From an uncultured Actinomycetes bacterium (lineage in GTDB: Bacteria > Actinomycetota > Thermoleophilia > UBA2241): 64,000 nucleotides of DNA. This document shows positions 57,334 through 64,000 of this stretch, piece by piece; position 1 is the stretch's first letter, and each line of letters opens with the position of its first letter. The translations under genes were made by a program, and so were the position numbers. Where the stretch lies: NCBI GenBank assembly GCA_963725665.1, contig CAVRZA010000003.1, positions 1 to 64,000 of the forward strand, given 5' to 3'. The notes below the pieces were generated by a model. That model worked only from the letters and a program-made list of their open reading frames with translations, was not told the origin of the DNA and searched no databases.

Positions 57334-57425
57334 GACGTCGTGAGCGCAGCAGACCGCTCCTACCGACGTCGTGAGCGCAGCAGACCGCTCCTACCGACGT
57401 TGCGAGCGCAGCAGACCGCTCCTAC
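57334..57425. repeat. 31-bp tandem repeat, about three copies (VNTR)
   Basis: GACGTCGTGAGCGCAGCAGACCGCTCCTACC; no spacers; internal GAGCG/CGCTC hairpin. Confidence 0.92.
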
Positions 57426-58986: not shown

Positions 58987-59188
58987 GATGACCTCCTTCG
59001 GGGATCTGTTCCGCTGCGACCGAGGCTATGCAGGCCGGTCGCGTGGGCAACAGCATACGTCGTCTCGTACGCCGTCGTTAAGTGTTGGGCCGTCGATGAG
59101 GCGAGGCCGCAGCCCACGCGACGAGGCTCGGGCCGCGGGCTCGAGCCCGCCTGGCGGGCGATGGAGCCGGATGGGCCGGGGTGGCGAC

Positions 59189-59254
59189 AGGCGCGCGGGC
59201 GGGCGCGGCGGGCGTCTCCCTCAAGGCGCCCGCCGCGCCCGCCCGCGCGCCTGC
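59189..59254 (-). terminator. Long perfect inverted repeat closing the S8 operon
   Basis: CAGGCGCGCGGGCGGGCGCGGCGGGCG...CGCCCGCCGCGCCCGCCCGCGCGCCTG directly after the STAS stop. Confidence 0.7.
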
Positions 59255-59257
59255 GTT

Positions 59258-59587
59258 CTACCCCGCTTTGGCCTGCGGTGCGATGAAGGCTCCCTCGCCG
59301 ACGAGCTCGCGCACCTTCAGCATCGCGAACACGTCTTCGACGGCGGGGGAGAGGTGGCGCGCCCGGAGCTGGATGCCCTGGGCTCGCAGGTCGAGGCAAA
59401 GACGCACGAAGATGCCGGCACCCGAGGAGTCGATGAAGCGGACCCCTGCGAAGTCCAGCACGGCCTGGTCGCTGCCCCGCACGGCGTCGCTTACGACCCA
59501 GCGCAGGGTCTCCGTGCAGTCCAGGTCTACCTCGCCCTCGAGGTAGATGATGGGGGCCACACCTTTGTCAACTCGCGTGTGCAGCAT
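59258..59587 (-). CDS. STAS anti-sigma factor antagonist
   Basis: LEGEVDL..LDFAGVRFIDSSGAG. Confidence 0.9.
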   Translation of the reverse strand: MLHTRVDKGVAPIIYLEGEVDLDCTETLRWVVSDAVRGSDQAVLDFAGVRFIDSSGAGIFVRLCLDLRAQGIQLRARHLSPAVEDVFAMLKVRELVGEGAFIAPQAKAG

Positions 59588-60371
59588 AGTCAGCCCTCTC
59601 CTTGATCATACGGTCGAGCATGAGCGTCGTCCCGTCGTTCCCGGTATGCAGTGAGACCTCTTCGAGGCTCTCGAGGATGAGCTTGTAACCGTAGCCCATG
59701 GACACCTGGTCGCCGCTGCCTTGCGGAGCGGTCCAGTTCAGGAAGCTGAGCCCCCGGCCGCGGTCCGAGACGATGGCGCGCAGGCGGTCGTCGAGGATGC
59801 GCAGAGCCACCGTGCCGGTGCCGCCGCCGTGGAGGATCATGTTGGTCGTCGCCTCGGAGACGGCGAGGATGAAGCCTTTGCGCGCGGCTTCACTCAGAGA
59901 GACCTCGGCCAGCGCCAGGTCGGCGGCGTTGCGCGTCATGGCCAGTGACGTCGAGTCGGTGACCGCGTGCGCGATCAGCTCGGAGCCGCGACTCCGCTCC
60001 GTGCTGAGCTCTTGCTCGTCGAGGAAGTGCAGCCTGCCCCGCGCGACAGCGGACGCCAGGTCGTTGAGGATGTCCAGCAGGCTGCGGCGGTGGTCGCCGT
60101 GATGGCGCCGCCAGCCGTTGGTGTGGATGCCCATGATCTCGCAGCGGTCGCCGCGGGGGATGAAGCAGAACTCGTCGCCGACGGCGTCGTTGTAGTCGGT
60201 GATGGTGTGGCAGACGAAGCTGCGCAGGTTCATGGCCTCGCGGGCCCGCTCGATCAGGTCCGCCGGTGGCAGCGGCGAGAGGGCGCCGCCGACGACGATG
60301 CGCAGCGTGTCGCTGCCCGCGTCGTAGCGGAAGACTTGCAGCGTCACGGGTGTGCGCTTGGGTCCCATCAT
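59568..60371 (-). CDS. RsbW/RsbT-like anti-sigma Ser kinase (HATPase_c_2) with an extra N-terminal domain
   Basis: LAVSEATTNMILHG, VSDRGRG, MGYGY. Confidence 0.85.
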   Translation of the reverse strand: MMGPKRTPVTLQVFRYDAGSDTLRIVVGGALSPLPPADLIERAREAMNLRSFVCHTITDYNDAVGDEFCFIPRGDRCEIMGIHTNGWRRHHGDHRRSLLDILNDLASAVARGRLHFLDEQELSTERSRGSELIAHAVTDSTSLAMTRNAADLALAEVSLSEAARKGFILAVSEATTNMILHGGGTGTVALRILDDRLRAIVSDRGRGLSFLNWTAPQGSGDQVSMGYGYKLILESLEEVSLHTGNDGTTLMLDRMIKERADYAAHAS

Positions 60372-60482
60372 GGTCTCACTCTGTATCGGTCGCTCGTCGC
60401 CGCCGGTTGAGTGCGCGGCGGTGCGGTCGCGAGCGGTCTTCGTCCGGCGCCGCGCCGATCTTGCCTCGACCTCATTGCGGCC

Positions 60483-62042
60483 TCACGTCACCTTGATGAG
60501 CAGCAGGGTCAGGTCGTCCGCCGGGGGCATGCCGCCGCGAAAGTCGGCGACCTCGGTGAGGACAGTCTCGAGGATGGCCTCGGGCGCGTCGGCACGCACG
60601 CGGCGCAGGCACGCGCACAGGCGCTCGACGCCGAAAAGCTCACCGGCGGCGTCGCGCGCCTCCGTCACCCCGTCGGTGTAGAGCGCGACGAGGTCGCCGG
60701 GGCTCAGCCTGAGTGTGTCCTCGGGGAAGTCGAGCCCCGGCCGGACGCCCAGCAGGCTGCCGCGGGCCGCCACTCGGCGCTCACCTTCGTCCCCGAACAC
60801 CAGCAGAGGGTTGTGACCGCCGCCGGCCACCGTCAGGCGTCGCCGTGCGGGATCGTAGAGTGCGTACGTGAGCGTGAGGAACGAGGGCAGCGCCTGGCCC
60901 TCGAGGTCGCGCGCGAGGCCGTCGTTCACCTCTGCCAGCACGCGGCCCGGCGAGCGTCGCGCGCGAGCCGCCTGGTGCAGCAGTGAACGAGCCATGGCCA
61001 TGATGAGGGCCGCCGCGAGCCCCTTGCCCATCACGTCGCCGCAGGCGATCGCCAGGTGGCCGTCGTCGAAGTCGAGGAAGTCGTAGTAGTCGCCGCCCAT
61101 CTCCGTCATGAACTCGATCCGGGCGGCGAACTCGAGGCCCTCGACCACAGGGGACTCCTTGGGCAGCAGGTCGAGCTGGATCTGTCGGGCTCGCTCGATC
61201 TCGGCGGCCACTTTGCGCTGCGTCTCGGCGAGCCGCTCGTGGAGCCGCGCGGTGGCTACGAGCTCGTCCTTGAACGACGCCAACGCCGCGGTGTGGGACT
61301 CGCGATCGCGGGCGCGGCTGGCGTAGATCTCGTAGGAGTAGTAGATGAGGAACAGCGGTGGCAGGGCGAGCAGTAGACCGGGAAGGCCGAGCGCGAGGTA
61401 GAGGCCGGCCACGAGCAGGCTGAGCGACGCACCCGTGAGGTAGCTCGGCAGCCCCCATTGGTAGTTGCGCTGCCACACGCGCAGGGCGCTCTCGCCAGTC
61501 GCCAGCGCGATGACGCCGGCAAGCACGACCGTGTTGGCCAGGAAGTCGACGCCAGTCGCGGCGAACGCGGGTAGCACGCGGTCGGTGAAGGTGGCCGTCA
61601 GGGGCACGAGGGCGACGTACAGCGCACCGCCGAGGAACGTCGAGAGCACGTGGTTGGCCACGTTGAAGACGATCTTCTGGGGGTCGTGCGTGAGCCAGGC
61701 CGTGGCGAGCCCCGAGGCGATGGCCACAAGGAGGGCGGGGAAGAGACCGAAGACGATCAGGGCGGCGAGGATGAGGACGAACGACAGCGTCACCACGCCG
61801 ACGCCCGGCAGGCGGACCTCGCGCAGATCGGCGAAGGCGGCGAGGGCGATGAAGGCGATGAGGGCCGGCGTGACCTCTCCGCTGTGGCCGGCCAGGGCCA
61901 GGCCGACCACGGCCGCGGCGACAACGGCGGCTACGTACAGTGAGACGGCCGCGCGTTGCCGCGCGGCCGTCTCACTGCCGGGCTGCGCTGGGGCGCCGAC
62001 TACTGACCGTCGATCATCGTCGTCCAGGAGTACTTGGTCCAT
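60483..62042 (-). CDS. Multi-TM sensor with coiled coil and PP2C/SpoIIE phosphatase (start uncertain)
   Basis: About 8 hydrophobic segments; ARQIQ..LLP, GGDYYD, GDVMGKG, YTDGVTEA, ADDLT. Confidence 0.9.
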   Translation of the reverse strand: MDQVLLDDDDRRSVVGAPAQPGSETAARQRAAVSLYVAAVVAAAVVGLALAGHSGEVTPALIAFIALAAFADLREVRLPGVGVVTLSFVLILAALIVFGLFPALLVAIASGLATAWLTHDPQKIVFNVANHVLSTFLGGALYVALVPLTATFTDRVLPAFAATGVDFLANTVVLAGVIALATGESALRVWQRNYQWGLPSYLTGASLSLLVAGLYLALGLPGLLLALPPLFLIYYSYEIYASRARDRESHTAALASFKDELVATARLHERLAETQRKVAAEIERARQIQLDLLPKESPVVEGLEFAARIEFMTEMGGDYYDFLDFDDGHLAIACGDVMGKGLAAALIMAMARSLLHQAARARRSPGRVLAEVNDGLARDLEGQALPSFLTLTYALYDPARRRLTVAGGGHNPLLVFGDEGERRVAARGSLLGVRPGLDFPEDTLRLSPGDLVALYTDGVTEARDAAGELFGVERLCACLRRVRADAPEAILETVLTEVADFRGGMPPADDLTLLLIKVT

Positions 62043-63628
62043 GAGTACTTCGTCCACGAGTACTTGGTCCACGAATACTTCGTCCAGGAATACTTCGTCC
62101 ATGAGTACTTGGTCCATGAGTACTTGGTCCACGAATACTTCGTCCACGAGTACTTCGCCCAGTTCACCAGCACGTCGGGAGGCAGGATGGTCGAGCCATC
62201 GCCAAGGTCGGCCGAGAGCGCCGGCCCGTCAGCTCGCATGTGGTTGGCGAGCACCGACGGCGTGTCGACCGCGCCGGCCCCCTGCACCGCCGACGACACA
62301 CCGGCCAGCGGACGCGCGCTCGCCATCAGGCGCACCTTCACGTCGTCGGGCGTGAGTCTTGGGTCGCGCTCGAGCATGAGGGCGGCGACTCCGGCCACGA
62401 CCGGCGCGGCTGTGCTCGTCCCGGAGAGCTTGAAGTAGGCAGGCTTCTCCCAAGCGGGAGCGGTGGGAGCGTAGAGGGACACCGGGATGCGGTTGTCGGG
62501 CCAGGTGCGGTCGACGAAGCTGCCCTTCACACGCAGCGAGATCAGACGGTTGCCGGGTGCGACGATGTCGGGCTTCGCGAACTCGTCGAACAGCGTCGGT
62601 CCGATCGAGCTGTAGCCGCACACGGCGTCGTCGTCGAGCGTCGCCGTCTGCTTCGTATCGAGCGCGCCGACGGTGATCGCCAACGGGTCGTTGCCGGGAG
62701 AGAGGATGCCGCCGTTGCCGAACTCACCTTCGTTGCCGGCGGCGCAGATGACGACGATGCCCGCTCTCCACGCGGCCTCCACGGCCTTTGCCAGGGGATC
62801 GTCCGAGACCGGCCCGGGAATGTCCCCGCCGGCCGAGATGTTCAGCACCCTGATGTGGTACTCGTTCTTGTGGCGGATGGCCCAGAGGATGCCCCTGATC
62901 ACGTCGGAAGCTCTACCCTGCCCGTACCTGTCGAGGACCTTGATGGCGACGATGTTGGCGCCGGGAGCGACGCCGCGGAACTGCTGCGTCGCGTAGCCGC
63001 CCTGATCGACCGGCAGCGAGGCGGTGCCGTCGCCTGCGATCAAACCGGCGACGAACGTGCCGTGCCCGGCGTCGTCGTACGGATGTCTCTTGCCCTTGAC
63101 GAAGTCGACCCAGCCGACGAGGCGCGAGCCATGAAGGTCGGCGGTCTCGTCGATGCCGCTGTCGATCACGGCGACCGTGACCCCCCTGCCCGTGGGTCCG
63201 CCGTCCCAGGGGGCGGGCAGCCGACCCAGTCCTATCGTCAGATTGGTCACGTCCATGGTGCTCGCGTAGTCGGCGGCGAACACGGTGGGGTCGGACGTGA
63301 TCGCAGTGACGTAGGGAAGCTCCGCCAGGGAATCGACCTGCTCCGCCGTGAGGGGTGCAGCGGCGGCCTTCACCACGTCGAGGGGCTCGGCGTCCGGAGT
63401 GGACGAAAGCGCCCCCATCACGTCGTCGACGTGTCCCGGCGCGTAGACGATGACGGGGACGGCCTCGCCGGGCGAGGCGGCCAGCGCCGCCGTGACTGCG
63501 GGGTCGACCTTCGTCGCCGTGTCAGGCCTCGCCGTCGGCGAGCCCCACTTGGCCGCCCACGCCGGCGAGGCCAGCGCGAGCAGCAGAAGGAGTGTGACCG
63601 CGACCGCGGCCTGGTAGCGCCTTCTCAT
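62000..63628 (-). CDS. Secreted S8 (AprX-like) serine protease with a C-terminal pentapeptide repeat tail
   Basis: Signal peptide; VIDSG, GHGT, AAGN and SGTSTAAP motifs; tail W-AKYSW-(TKYSW)8. Confidence 0.95.
   Translation of the reverse strand: MRRRYQAAVAVTLLLLLALASPAWAAKWGSPTARPDTATKVDPAVTAALAASPGEAVPVIVYAPGHVDDVMGALSSTPDAEPLDVVKAAAAPLTAEQVDSLAELPYVTAITSDPTVFAADYASTMDVTNLTIGLGRLPAPWDGGPTGRGVTVAVIDSGIDETADLHGSRLVGWVDFVKGKRHPYDDAGHGTFVAGLIAGDGTASLPVDQGGYATQQFRGVAPGANIVAIKVLDRYGQGRASDVIRGILWAIRHKNEYHIRVLNISAGGDIPGPVSDDPLAKAVEAAWRAGIVVICAAGNEGEFGNGGILSPGNDPLAITVGALDTKQTATLDDDAVCGYSSIGPTLFDEFAKPDIVAPGNRLISLRVKGSFVDRTWPDNRIPVSLYAPTAPAWEKPAYFKLSGTSTAAPVVAGVAALMLERDPRLTPDDVKVRLMASARPLAGVSSAVQGAGAVDTPSVLANHMRADGPALSADLGDGSTILPPDVLVNWAKYSWTKYSWTKYSWTKYSWTKYSWTKYSWTKYSWTKYSWTKYSWTTMIDGQ
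62024..62161 (-). repeat. 15-bp coding repeat, nine copies, encoding (T/A)KYSW
   Basis: AC(G/C) AAG TA(C/T) TC(G/A/C) TGG; the eight TKYSW units differ only synonymously. Confidence 0.97.
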
Positions 63629-63741
63629 GGTCCGTCCCTCCACACCCTGCTCCGTTGGCTTCGCCGCTCTCGCCGAACGAGCGGGCTGGTCCTGTCGCGA
63701 AGGGGCGCCCGTGCCGGAAGGCCGTGAGGAGGGTCGGGTGG

Positions 63742-63820
63742 TTCGGCGGCCGAGCTATCTTGCCGTCGGGCAAGACCTCTAGCTTTGCGTCCCTGCCTCA
63801 CAGCAGGTTTGCCCTTTCGT
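63742..63820 (-). promoter_or_regulatory. Cyclic di-GMP-I (GEMM-I) riboswitch
   Basis: Minus strand reads GGGCAAA-CCTGCT-GTGA-GGCAGG-GACGCAAAGCTAGAGGTCT...GATAGCTCGGCCGCCG, with the hallmark GGCAAA, GNRA hairpin and GGACGCAAAG. Confidence 0.88.
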
Positions 63821-64000
63821 TGGGAGAAGTATCGACTGCGCGGCGCGACAAGATTAGACGAACGTTCTACATGTGTAGCCGGTGCGGCGACGTATCCAGC
63901 GCAAGAGGCGTCCGGAGGGCCGACGCCCTGTCAAGGGGCCAAGAACATGGGATTCAGCTACAGGAAACGTACTCTACGCAGGCTTTACACTGAATGGAGT

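Follow-up and report, generated by a model that had tools for sequence, protein, structure and literature searches.

We analysed a gene unit on the minus strand of a 64,000-nucleotide stretch of DNA from an uncultured Actinomycetes bacterium (positions 1 to 64,000 of contig CAVRZA010000003.1, assembly GCA_963725665.1; hereafter the window). The unit encodes a secreted S8 subtilase ending in a run of tryptophan-containing pentapeptides and, immediately downstream, a membrane sensor-phosphatase. Across loci, subtilases with such a tail are strictly paired with a sensor of this type, and tail and sensor change together, which suggests, from sequence comparison, a previously undescribed bacterial signalling pair. 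An original prediction, made from the letters of the window, had described one co-oriented unit running from a riboswitch through the subtilase, the sensor, a kinase and a STAS protein to a terminal hairpin, and we found each of these parts, all on the minus strand.

Tailed subtilases and their neighbouring sensors

The subtilase gene spans 62000..63628 (minus strand). Its longest open reading frame (ORF) begins at 63643, but translation probably starts at the ATG at 63628, which follows GGAGGGA and gives a protein of 542 residues, the length of a 98%-identical homologue (P0001). A signal peptide (MRRRYQAAVAVTLLLLLALASPAWA, read from the sequence) is followed by a propeptide and a catalytic domain (~62276-63190), which matches Peptidase_S8 in Pfam at 162.3 bits over residues 152-456 and whose core was modelled confidently by AlphaFold2 (AF2). 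The triad D161, H194 and S410 is invariant in 81 homologues and the oxyanion residue N304 is conserved as well, in agreement with the predicted secreted subtilase with an intact triad. The best NCBIfam match is the type VII secretion system (T7SS) mycosin (TIGR03921), at 160.7 bits under the equivalog cut-off of 278.75, and other tailed S8 proteins score 147-149 bits against this model; by Pfam domain, Asp-His-Ser triad and oxyanion Asn the window protein is thus an S8 protease, and by score it falls outside the mycosin equivalog.

Repeat finding and translation placed the tail at residues 495-540 (62024..62161, minus strand). One AKYSW unit is followed by eight TKYSW units, and the protein ends ...NW-AKYSW-(TKYSW)x8-TTMIDGQ; the nine KYSW units are the number originally predicted and were counted in one assembly, and assemblies of metagenome-assembled genomes (MAGs) can distort repeats. 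The terminal TTMIDGQ and the TAG stop form a C-terminal cap (62000..62023, minus strand) that emerged from comparing the junction across loci. At the DNA level the tail is a 15-nucleotide (nt) repeat present 9.5 times at 62020-62161 with 87% matches. Among the 36 unit pairs of the window tail we counted 60 synonymous and 8 nonsynonymous codon differences, an excess indicating more than recent DNA duplication, and 69% of 731 amino-acid-identical unit pairs differ in DNA. Judged from these codon comparisons, identical tail units are kept by selection on the peptide despite synonymous drift. The best 120 homologues (53-98% identity; the six carrying an organism name are all called Thermoleophilia) without exception have C-terminal W-[TS]-K-[YF]-x units, with A, S, R, K, T or G at position x; in some, GVSWT, EYQWA or similar units are interspersed. 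However much the units differ, Trp recurs invariantly every five residues, and it is a good P1 residue for subtilases. The genome from which the window derives has a single Trp-period-5 run, that of the window.

When scanned at E up to 0.01, the S8 protein gave no tail match to the Pfam Pentapeptide families (PF00805/PF13599) or to repeat or wall-binding families; tails of two S8 proteins from other families gave sub-threshold Pentapeptide matches. A Protein Atlas search with the tail returned unnamed clusters alone, with scores of 0.90 or less. The AF2 model contains no strands in the tail, at predicted local distance difference test (pLDDT) values of 26-37, a confidence so low that it supports neither a solenoid nor disorder; the beta-solenoid that would have spoken against the original prediction is thus absent from the model, at low confidence.

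The next gene (60483..62042, minus strand, with a start at ATG 62042 or GTG 61910) encodes a membrane sensor-phosphatase recognised by SpoIIE/PP2C and MASE9 matches. Its PP2C domain (60489-61067, minus strand) matches SpoIIE (PF07228) at 179.2 bits over profile positions 1-191 of 192, and the best NCBIfam name for the phosphatase, SiaA, scores 59 bits against a cut-off of 700. The protein matches MASE9 (PF20972) at 24.3 bits, equal to the cut-off of 24.3 and hence borderline. AF2 modelled the membrane domain (~61323-61967, minus strand) with a pLDDT of 84.7 as ~8 helices with very short outside loops, as anticipated for a sensor with about eight transmembrane segments, little extracellular part and a SpoIIE output. 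In the model, one N-terminal helix precedes a bundle, in which a beta-hairpin that is short and conserved (DLREVRLPxVGxVTLSF) is found, and a long helix leads out. Alignment of this model to structure representatives with VIA-align gave, as the top 15 matches, S components of energy-coupling factor (ECF) transporters (Z 13.2 to 8.9, root-mean-square deviation (rmsd) 3.3-4.3, 146-184 residues aligned), the next unrelated chains scoring 7.6 and lower. The best match, 4hzu_S (Z 13.2, rmsd 3.4, 159/164 residues), covers sensor residues ~28-197, and the S-component-like part lies at ~61377-61886. A Foldseek search of the PDB listed ECF S components in all of its first 14 rows; because its E-values were weak, we base the fold assignment on VIA-align. 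The sensor membrane domain accordingly models as an ECF-transporter S-component fold with the characteristic six helices.

S components are high-affinity binders of vitamins and metal ions, which they hold in an intramembrane pocket, and the S-component-like fold would therefore fit a small ligand bound within the membrane. None of the S-component families in Pfam matched the sensor (E up to 0.01), and no EcfT or EcfA was seen among the scanned neighbours, which are signalling genes, no systematic or genome-wide search for them having been made. The authors of the MASE9 family propose ligand binding inside the membrane, and the accessible part of their preprint names no ligand (bioRxiv 10.1101/2021.11.05.467447). 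When the tail (residues 488-547) was co-folded with the membrane domain of the sensor, the score was 0.00, which counts neither way.

A genome scan returned 73 related loci, which we refer to as the window family; all are MAG-derived, and with few exceptions their labels read Thermoleophilia, Actinomycetes or Actinomycetota. The membrane-PP2C sensor gene comes next in 66/66 loci that have DNA after the S8 gene (seven of the 73 end at S8), and all four genes of the unit stand in order in 62 of these 66, the other four running off their contigs. Gene order in this clade is conserved well beyond the operon, and because of this region-wide synteny the S8-sensor adjacency there proves little alone. 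One locus (L043:11100-13470) has ~2.3 kb inserted between the PP2C and kinase genes. The window's own genome (G000) contains a second sensor with this type of membrane domain and no S8 gene beside it, and a second, tail-less S8 gene with no such sensor beside it (C2:65779-67269 and C3:117136-119436, both on the plus strand).

Tailed subtilases also occur outside the window family. The tail alone, used as a protein query against 1.84 billion representatives, gave 352 matches, many of the short ones resembling translated eukaryotic simple repeats. Twenty Trp-run proteins, picked from 150 listed matches, were scanned, and 15 were S8 subtilases; tail units of these other S8 proteins include GISWD (x37), SWTGN (x32), WTGVS, SWTGG, DVSWA, WTGVR, SWTSA, RSWVA and AHRWA, the longest tail having 37 units (P0124). 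One of the remaining five was an Amidase_3 protein and four had no or a weak family assignment. Among non-S8 proteins, P0129 (749 residues) has internal W-S-K-F/I/Y-D units together with Listeria-Bacteroides repeats, in P0185 (908 residues) an LPXTG-like anchor is preceded by [YF]-x-W units, and P0260, which is the Amidase_3 protein, has ten SWTEE units.

At the DNA level, a pattern of six Trp codons spaced 15 nt apart was present in 149 of 401 Actinomycetota genomes, a tally that is an upper bound because a control pattern also matches some genomes, and that includes eight unpublished genomes on which no locus-level claim rests. Thirty pattern loci were returned; 27 had a Trp-run ORF, and 18 of these 27 encode an S8 protein with the run at the very C-terminus, the non-S8 Trp-run ORFs looking like alternative-frame artefacts. 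The catalytic Asp and His and the oxyanion Asn are intact in 16/16 of these other-family proteins where covered, and the Ser in 18/18. Wider regions, fetched for 12 of the 18 genes, encode a membrane signalling protein directly downstream and on the same strand in 12/12 cases, with an N-terminal membrane region of 240-350 residues and PAS/GAF-HisKA-HATPase_c outputs in eight and GAF-GGDEF-EAL outputs in four.

A jackhmmer search started from the window membrane domain recruits all 12 of these sensors, in a small database of 62 sequences. With hhalign, the window-family profile matched three other groups at 93.0%, 88.6% and 93.3% probability (93% for the PAS-kinase sensor group that has L117, L122 and L124 among its members), and the other groups, the single sensor L114 included, matched one another at 92-100%; L114 against the window family reached just 12.7%. 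MASE9 scores of other-family sensors were 29.9 bits for L117 and 31.8 bits for L124, which pass the cut-off, and 21.3 bits for L122, which does not. The expectation that the gene next to a tailed S8 gene encodes the same membrane domain with variable outputs was thus borne out in 66/66 family and 12/12 other-family loci, with PP2C, histidine kinase and GGDEF-EAL outputs. In two kinase-output families (L117:2619-3092, L123:8473-9018), the gene immediately ahead of the tailed S8 gene encodes a receiver domain that stands alone, and a GMP synthase gene follows the sensor gene in three families (L117, L122, L124).

For the reverse test we took the best 30 MASE9 loci in 151 genomes, of which three have less than 500 nt upstream. 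Of the other 27, which were ranked by Pfam score and have 1.4 kb or more of upstream DNA, just one has a tailed S8 gene upstream, and MASE9 was rejected as a predictor of an S8 partner. Given this weak reverse association, the rule is one-way: a tailed S8 implies the sensor, and the sensor does not imply a tailed S8.

Joint change of tail and sensor membrane domain

Co-variation was measured in 41 operons with at least five tail units, in pairs matched on PP2C-domain distance. At PP2C distances of 0.05-0.10, the membrane-domain distance was 0.068 for pairs with the same tail (n = 9) and 0.329 for pairs with different tails (n = 5), compared to catalytic-domain distances of 0.148 and 0.175, respectively. 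The corresponding membrane-domain values were 0.080 (n = 20) and 0.350 (n = 6) at PP2C distances of 0.10-0.15, with catalytic-domain distances of 0.188 and 0.190, and 0.117 (n = 65) and 0.389 (n = 31) at PP2C distances of 0.15-0.20, with catalytic-domain distances of 0.209 and 0.300. The nearest neighbour has the same tail type in 37/37 cases by membrane domain, 34/37 by PP2C domain and 31/37 by catalytic domain.

Sliding windows located this change in a block of ~700-900 nt, comprising tail and membrane domain, which switches its closest relative in L003, L061, L057 and L014 while both flanks keep theirs. The tail types KFK (10 operons) and KFR (14 operons) form exact clades in the membrane-domain tree, with support of 0.98 and 0.99, and are not exact clades in the PP2C and catalytic trees, where L061 (KFK) falls inside KFR and L003 (KYR) groups with KFK operons. 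The predicted co-variation of repeat sequence with receptor clade is therefore present, in the nearest neighbours and in the exact clades of the membrane-domain tree alone. By these sequence comparisons, tail type and sensor membrane domain are one mosaic block, and the catalytic and PP2C flanks have other histories.

Riboswitch, junction hairpin and partner-switch genes

A c-di-GMP-I (cyclic di-GMP) riboswitch aptamer (63742..63823, minus strand) matches RF01051 in Rfam at 65.9 bits (gathering score 35, E 2.5e-11), in line with the GEMM-I type that had been claimed. A purpose-built covariance model (R1, made from seven aptamers) places the riboswitch at 63731-63832 with 94.9 bits and finds one upstream of the S8 gene in 66/73 related loci; five loci (L019, L023, L032, L036, L064) gave no R1 match despite enough upstream DNA, and two further loci are cut at the 5' end. 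Rfam assigns the aptamers of 6/8 tested relatives to RF03167, the c-di-GMP-I-GGC variant (63-73 bits; clan CL00126), and a ligand for this variant was not found in the open literature searched, including the accessible part of Weinberg 2017 (PMC5737381). Ten other-family tailed-S8 loci tested gave 0 riboswitch matches, for which reason the riboswitch was rejected as a core component: the gate is a clade-specific addition outside the core S8-sensor pair. The proposed gating by a cyclic dinucleotide would therefore apply to the unit and most of its kin and not to the core pair.

The ~110-nt leader between aptamer and S8 start (63629..63741, minus strand) is a putative expression platform. It carries a pyrimidine stretch, CCCTCCTC, at 63726-63733 and the Shine-Dalgarno sequence GGAGGGA at 63635-63641; its minimum-free-energy fold pairs the two, yet this fold is no better than those of shuffled sequences (z 0.15). 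GGAGG ahead of the S8 start codon is kept in relatives. Consensus promoter and terminator scans of 59000-64000 found nothing.

Two genes beyond the window on the same contig bear on this end of the unit. A protein of 1147 residues with a MerR helix-turn-helix (HTH), four GAF domains and GGDEF is encoded 5 kb upstream of the riboswitch (contig C3 ~69030-72473, plus strand; L113:5030-8473); it could supply the riboswitch ligand, and it was matched in just two related loci, L055 (36% identity) and L070 (53%). Divergent from the riboswitch lies a gene for a radical SAM/SPASM protein of 470 residues (contig C3 64105-65517, plus strand; L113:105-1517). Some enzymes of this class, the WgkB and KxxxW maturases, make Lys-Trp links in peptides, and the protein was considered as a Lys-Trp crosslinking maturase of the tail. 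The gene is matched in 63/73 family loci at 57-71% identity (mostly 62-70%), and its neighbours are matched likewise, which makes the region syntenic as a whole; NCBIfam gave weak matches of a generic kind (NirJ2/AhbD 87 bits; WgkB and KxxxW maturases 42-57 bits, far under cut-offs), and there is no radical SAM gene among the 26 neighbouring genes scanned across the 12 other-family regions. On these grounds it was set aside, though it may yet modify the K..W units.

At the S8-sensor junction, the S8 protein of relatives ends in ..IEGQ; most loci end the S8 gene with ...GAG GGN CAG TGA, and the GTG start of the sensor gene overlaps the TGA (GTGA), an overlap that would make translational coupling possible, with GAGG as the Shine-Dalgarno sequence. 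The window junction reads GAC GGT CAG TAG. Its TAG stop converts the GTG to GTA, which leaves the window sensor start uncertain between the two candidates given above, of which ATG 62042 lies inside the repeat.

Folding and covariation identified a conserved hairpin, 18 bp in the window, in the 5' coding region of the sensor gene (61938..61977, minus strand). It lies after the S8 stop and ahead of the membrane domain, ~35-45 nt past the junction and in the sensor frame. Its 14-bp core has standard pairs in 96.3% of cells across 49 aligned sequences, and cells with double changes numbered 40 compared to 9.2 ± 3.2 in shuffles, 0/500 of which reached 40. Double changes affect three pairs, one of which occurs as UA, CG, AU and GC. 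Because the compensating changes alter encoded residues (V..T, A..A, E..S, G..P), the pairing is under selection at the nucleic-acid level. The hairpin is missing from the subclade L001, L002, L008, L047 and L070. By attenuation or by stabilising a 3' end, it may set the protease:regulator ratio. Strong junction hairpins were also seen in the other-family loci L115 (G040:C3), L114 and L119; that of L115, judged by folding energy alone, has a 16-bp perfect stem followed by TTT and -38 kcal/mol in a 50-nt window.

The two remaining genes encode an RsbW/SpoIIAB-type serine kinase (59568..60371, minus strand) and an anti-sigma-antagonist-type STAS protein (59258..59587, minus strand), both as originally described. 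The kinase matches HATPase_c_2 at 34.5 bits (cut-off 27.4), has an N-terminal extension of ~130 residues and contains N-box and G1-box motifs, read from the sequence. RsbA_anti_sig matches its C-terminal part only, at 50.9 bits and below cut-off, and the equivalogs RsbW (21.8 and 19.2 bits) and SpoIIAB (25.4 bits) all score far under their cut-offs. The STAS protein matches PF01740 at 47 bits and TIGR00377 at 48.9 bits, just below the cut-off of 53.45, and its IDSSGAG sequence includes a DSSG motif that presumably holds the serine phosphorylated in relatives. ORFs and Pfam matches revealed no sigma factor gene within 59188-63823.

The long terminal hairpin that had been predicted to close the unit is present at ~59188-59254 (minus strand), just outside the STAS gene end at 59258; it folds at -89.4 kcal/mol (z -9.0), and 0/200 shuffles fold as well. 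It lacks a T-run, and the consensus terminator scan consequently finds none. An Fe/Mn superoxide dismutase gene follows the hairpin, and past that gene, near a weak NTP_transf_5 ORF, the window contains a 31-nt tandem repeat in three copies with 96% matches (57334-57425). Four of eight Rfam-scanned relatives (L001, L008, L019, L064) have an opposite-strand tRNA gene ~100-800 nt after the STAS gene, where the window has superoxide dismutase instead.

Readings of the tail and relation to known systems

We would assign an even chance to the reading in which the sensor receives the tail as its cognate input from outside the cell, most probably as self-cleaved short Trp peptides that enter the S-component-like pocket. 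Self-cleavage, the identity of the ligand, its binding, the directions of the switch and the biological meaning are parts of this reading that we infer. The core would be a two-gene module widespread in Actinomycetota, a tailed subtilase and the sensor encoded immediately downstream. The exported protease would cut its own tail after aromatic residues to give short Trp-containing peptides, which would enter the S-component-like pocket of the sensor. In the window clade the bound state would set the PP2C phosphatase, which would dephosphorylate the STAS protein against the RsbW-like kinase in a partner switch with its target elsewhere in the genome. Other families would use this input domain to drive histidine kinases or GGDEF-EAL enzymes. 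A c-di-GMP riboswitch would gate the whole unit in the window clade, and the intragenic hairpin would probably lower expression of the three regulators relative to the protease.

Several observations point to peptide release: the tail occurs almost only on active proteases, Trp is its sole invariant residue and has fixed spacing, the units are identical and number up to 37, and the modelled sensor fold is one for small ligands. A fuller version is tentative. In it, the subtilase would be its own pheromone precursor, releasing up to dozens of identical Trp pentapeptides that are read by an S-component-like receptor coupled to phosphatase, kinase or c-di-GMP outputs; many Actinomycetota would use the system, tail and receptor would diversify jointly into agr/com-like specificity groups, and in this clade c-di-GMP would gate it. 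Since the signal would be tied one-to-one to exported active protease, cells would measure whether secretion pays off. The system may also be tied to decisions between surface and free-living states, because c-di-GMP enters twice, as riboswitch ligand here and as product or substrate of GGDEF-EAL enzymes elsewhere. As a whole, the original prediction is supported in part: its comparative expectations (neighbouring domain, variable outputs, tracking of tail and clade) were borne out, the self-processing, peptide sensing and quorum role that it proposed are putative, and its riboswitch gate proved not to be part of the core pair.

A number of results weigh against peptide sensing. Trp-period-5 repeats occur in a few non-S8 surface proteins, so the repeat can be structural, and the processing is a step that we infer. 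One family member (L016:830-2342) is an S8 protein with only ~two tail units (..WDKYAWTILIDGQ), which is either a real loss or an assembly collapse of the repeat. The reverse association is weak, and the window's own genome has a second sensor of this kind without an S8 partner. Foldseek E-values were 0.015 or weaker, with none at or below 0.001, and a Z near 13 for a helical bundle can reflect a common arrangement. Although S8 and sensor genes overlap in most loci, the Shine-Dalgarno sequence and the overlapping GTG of the sensor are both lost at the window junction, and the gene overlap is itself a point for the alternatives below. Partial correlation with the tail was unspecific (r of 0.36, 0.27 and 0.25 for the membrane, PP2C and catalytic domains, respectively), and this test was replaced by matched bins, nearest neighbours, sliding windows and trees for that reason. 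Finally, tail and membrane domain are adjacent DNA, and single recombination tracts between conserved flanks, rather than selected matching, could explain their co-inheritance. No mismatched tail-sensor pair was seen, and as the conserved tail-sensor junction (~32-40 nt) could be a recombination breakpoint, this would be a weak argument for matching.

The alternative that survives best is somewhat doubtful: the tail would stay on and dock the protease at the sensor or the membrane, and the sensor would report docking, protease load or substrate engagement. Co-variation of tail and sensor fits any direct contact and hence this one, and coupled translation through the GTGA overlap would be fitting for a complex of fixed stoichiometry. 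Residues typical of the membrane interface include Lys/Arg, Trp and Tyr/Phe, similar repeats occur on non-protease surface proteins, and the closest NCBIfam relative is mycosin, whose membrane anchor the tail would replace. A docking tail, on the other hand, would not have to ride on active proteases only; S components take small ligands in a buried pocket and not polymers, and the 37 identical units of P0124 exceed what docking needs.

It is unlikely that the tail is a structural or wall-binding repeat unlinked to the sensor, which would then regulate or monitor secretion or the state of the envelope, much as a two-component system can adjoin the protease gene under its control. The Trp-period-5 repeats of the Amidase_3, LPXTG-type and Listeria-Bacteroides-repeat proteins would suit such a role, clade-wide synteny makes adjacency weak evidence within the clade, and DNA contiguity can account for co-inheritance; nevertheless, the tailed S8 keeps to this input domain as outputs change, which ties the protease to the input of the sensor and not to its output. 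Nor does the tail have a Pfam repeat or wall-binding match or a confident fold, and the one tail-less S8 gene of the window's genome (n = 1) has no adjoining sensor.

Regulated proteolysis, in which the protease would cut the sensor or a third protein and the tail would just position it, is improbable. The modelled outside loops of the sensor are very short, and multi-copy identical units under purifying selection would be left unexplained, even though the conserved triad and the tight gene pair are what such a protease would have and cross-membrane signalling proteases such as SpoIVB are known. That there is no functional link at all, a drifting low-complexity end being carried along in a gene order inherited by chance, is very improbable and already disfavoured: kin share gene order, repeat counts vary and MAG assemblies can distort repeats, but the pairing holds in 12/12 other-family loci despite output swaps, peptides are identical across synonymous divergence, and Trp is invariant at period 5 in very different units.

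If tail peptides do act as the input of the sensor, peptide signalling would be added to a phylum whose cell-to-cell signals are mostly known as small lactones. The MASE9-like sensor domain would have its first candidate ligand, the ECF S-component fold would have been reused as a receptor module, and an exo-enzyme would carry its own reporter, tying signal output to enzyme export. The system is tractable: units are five residues long, each of the natural variants KFK, KFR, KYA and KYS has a sensor to match, and simple readouts are available in c-di-GMP turnover, kinase autophosphorylation and the phosphorylation of STAS. Even without peptide release, the S8-sensor pairing, the S-component-like fold and the intragenic hairpin would be new annotations for at least 78 loci (66 family and 12 other).

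The individual parts belong to known families; what appears new, on sequence and model evidence, is the pairing, the S-component-like sensor fold and the covarying hairpin. We found no published description of the pairing of a Trp-repeat-tailed S8 with a sensor, of an S-component-like sensor fold or of the hairpin in a search that covered literature outside subscription journals and supplements. Among enzymes with related tails or products, cyanobactin PatA/PatG with PatE and the fungal Kex2 repeat proteins have repeated identical cores excised by an S8-type protease, and borosins carry the core peptide on the C-terminus of their own enzyme. The window S8, in contrast, matches PatA/PatG at 36 bits against a cut-off of 421, the other families of tailed S8 lack a conserved macrocyclase or modifying-enzyme cassette, and the proposed product would be a signal for the neighbouring receptor. 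Pentapeptide-repeat (Rfr) beta-helices share the period of five, and T-K-F/Y-x-W can be written on the A(D/N)LXX register; unlike in those proteins, there is no Pfam match, AF2 shows no beta-helix (at low confidence), and families differ in the residue at the position that would form the core (Y, F, I, V, M, N, G, A, R, H).

On the sensor side, residues ~28-197 share a predicted fold with the ECF S components RibU, ThiT, FolT, BioY, PanT, CbiM/NikM and BtuM, to which the window protein adds an N-terminal helix, a long output helix and fused signalling domains. MASE9 (PF20972) resembles the window sensor in its borderline to moderate matches and its promiscuous outputs; the S8-linked sensors are a weakly scoring subgroup of it, and its authors mention no protease partner or S-component fold in the accessible part of their text. 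RsbU/RsbV/RsbW, SpoIIE/SpoIIAA/SpoIIAB and SiaABCD likewise combine a PP2C protein, an HATPase_c_2 kinase and a STAS protein in one operon. The window unit differs from these partner switches in having no sigma factor or cyclase gene, ~130 extra N-terminal residues on the kinase, a new input domain and a protease partner.

The closest parallels in organisation are agr (AgrBDCA) and comQXPA of Firmicutes, in which a signal source lies beside a polytopic receptor and a variable block of signal and receptor membrane domain stands between conserved flanks. Tail and sensor membrane domain co-vary as a block in the same way, though both are contiguous DNA. The agr and com systems differ in having a separate small precursor, matured by AgrB or ComQ, and a dedicated histidine kinase receptor (HPK10-type); no separate small precursor gene, AgrB/ComQ-type enzyme or HPK10-type kinase is present among the genes of the unit, where, judging from sequence, the candidate signal is fused to the S8 protease, the receptor fold is S-component-like and the outputs vary. 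We would place the unit as peptide-ligand/membrane-receptor signalling joined to a partner switch, and, if self-processing and specific sensing were confirmed, it would merit being called its own kind.

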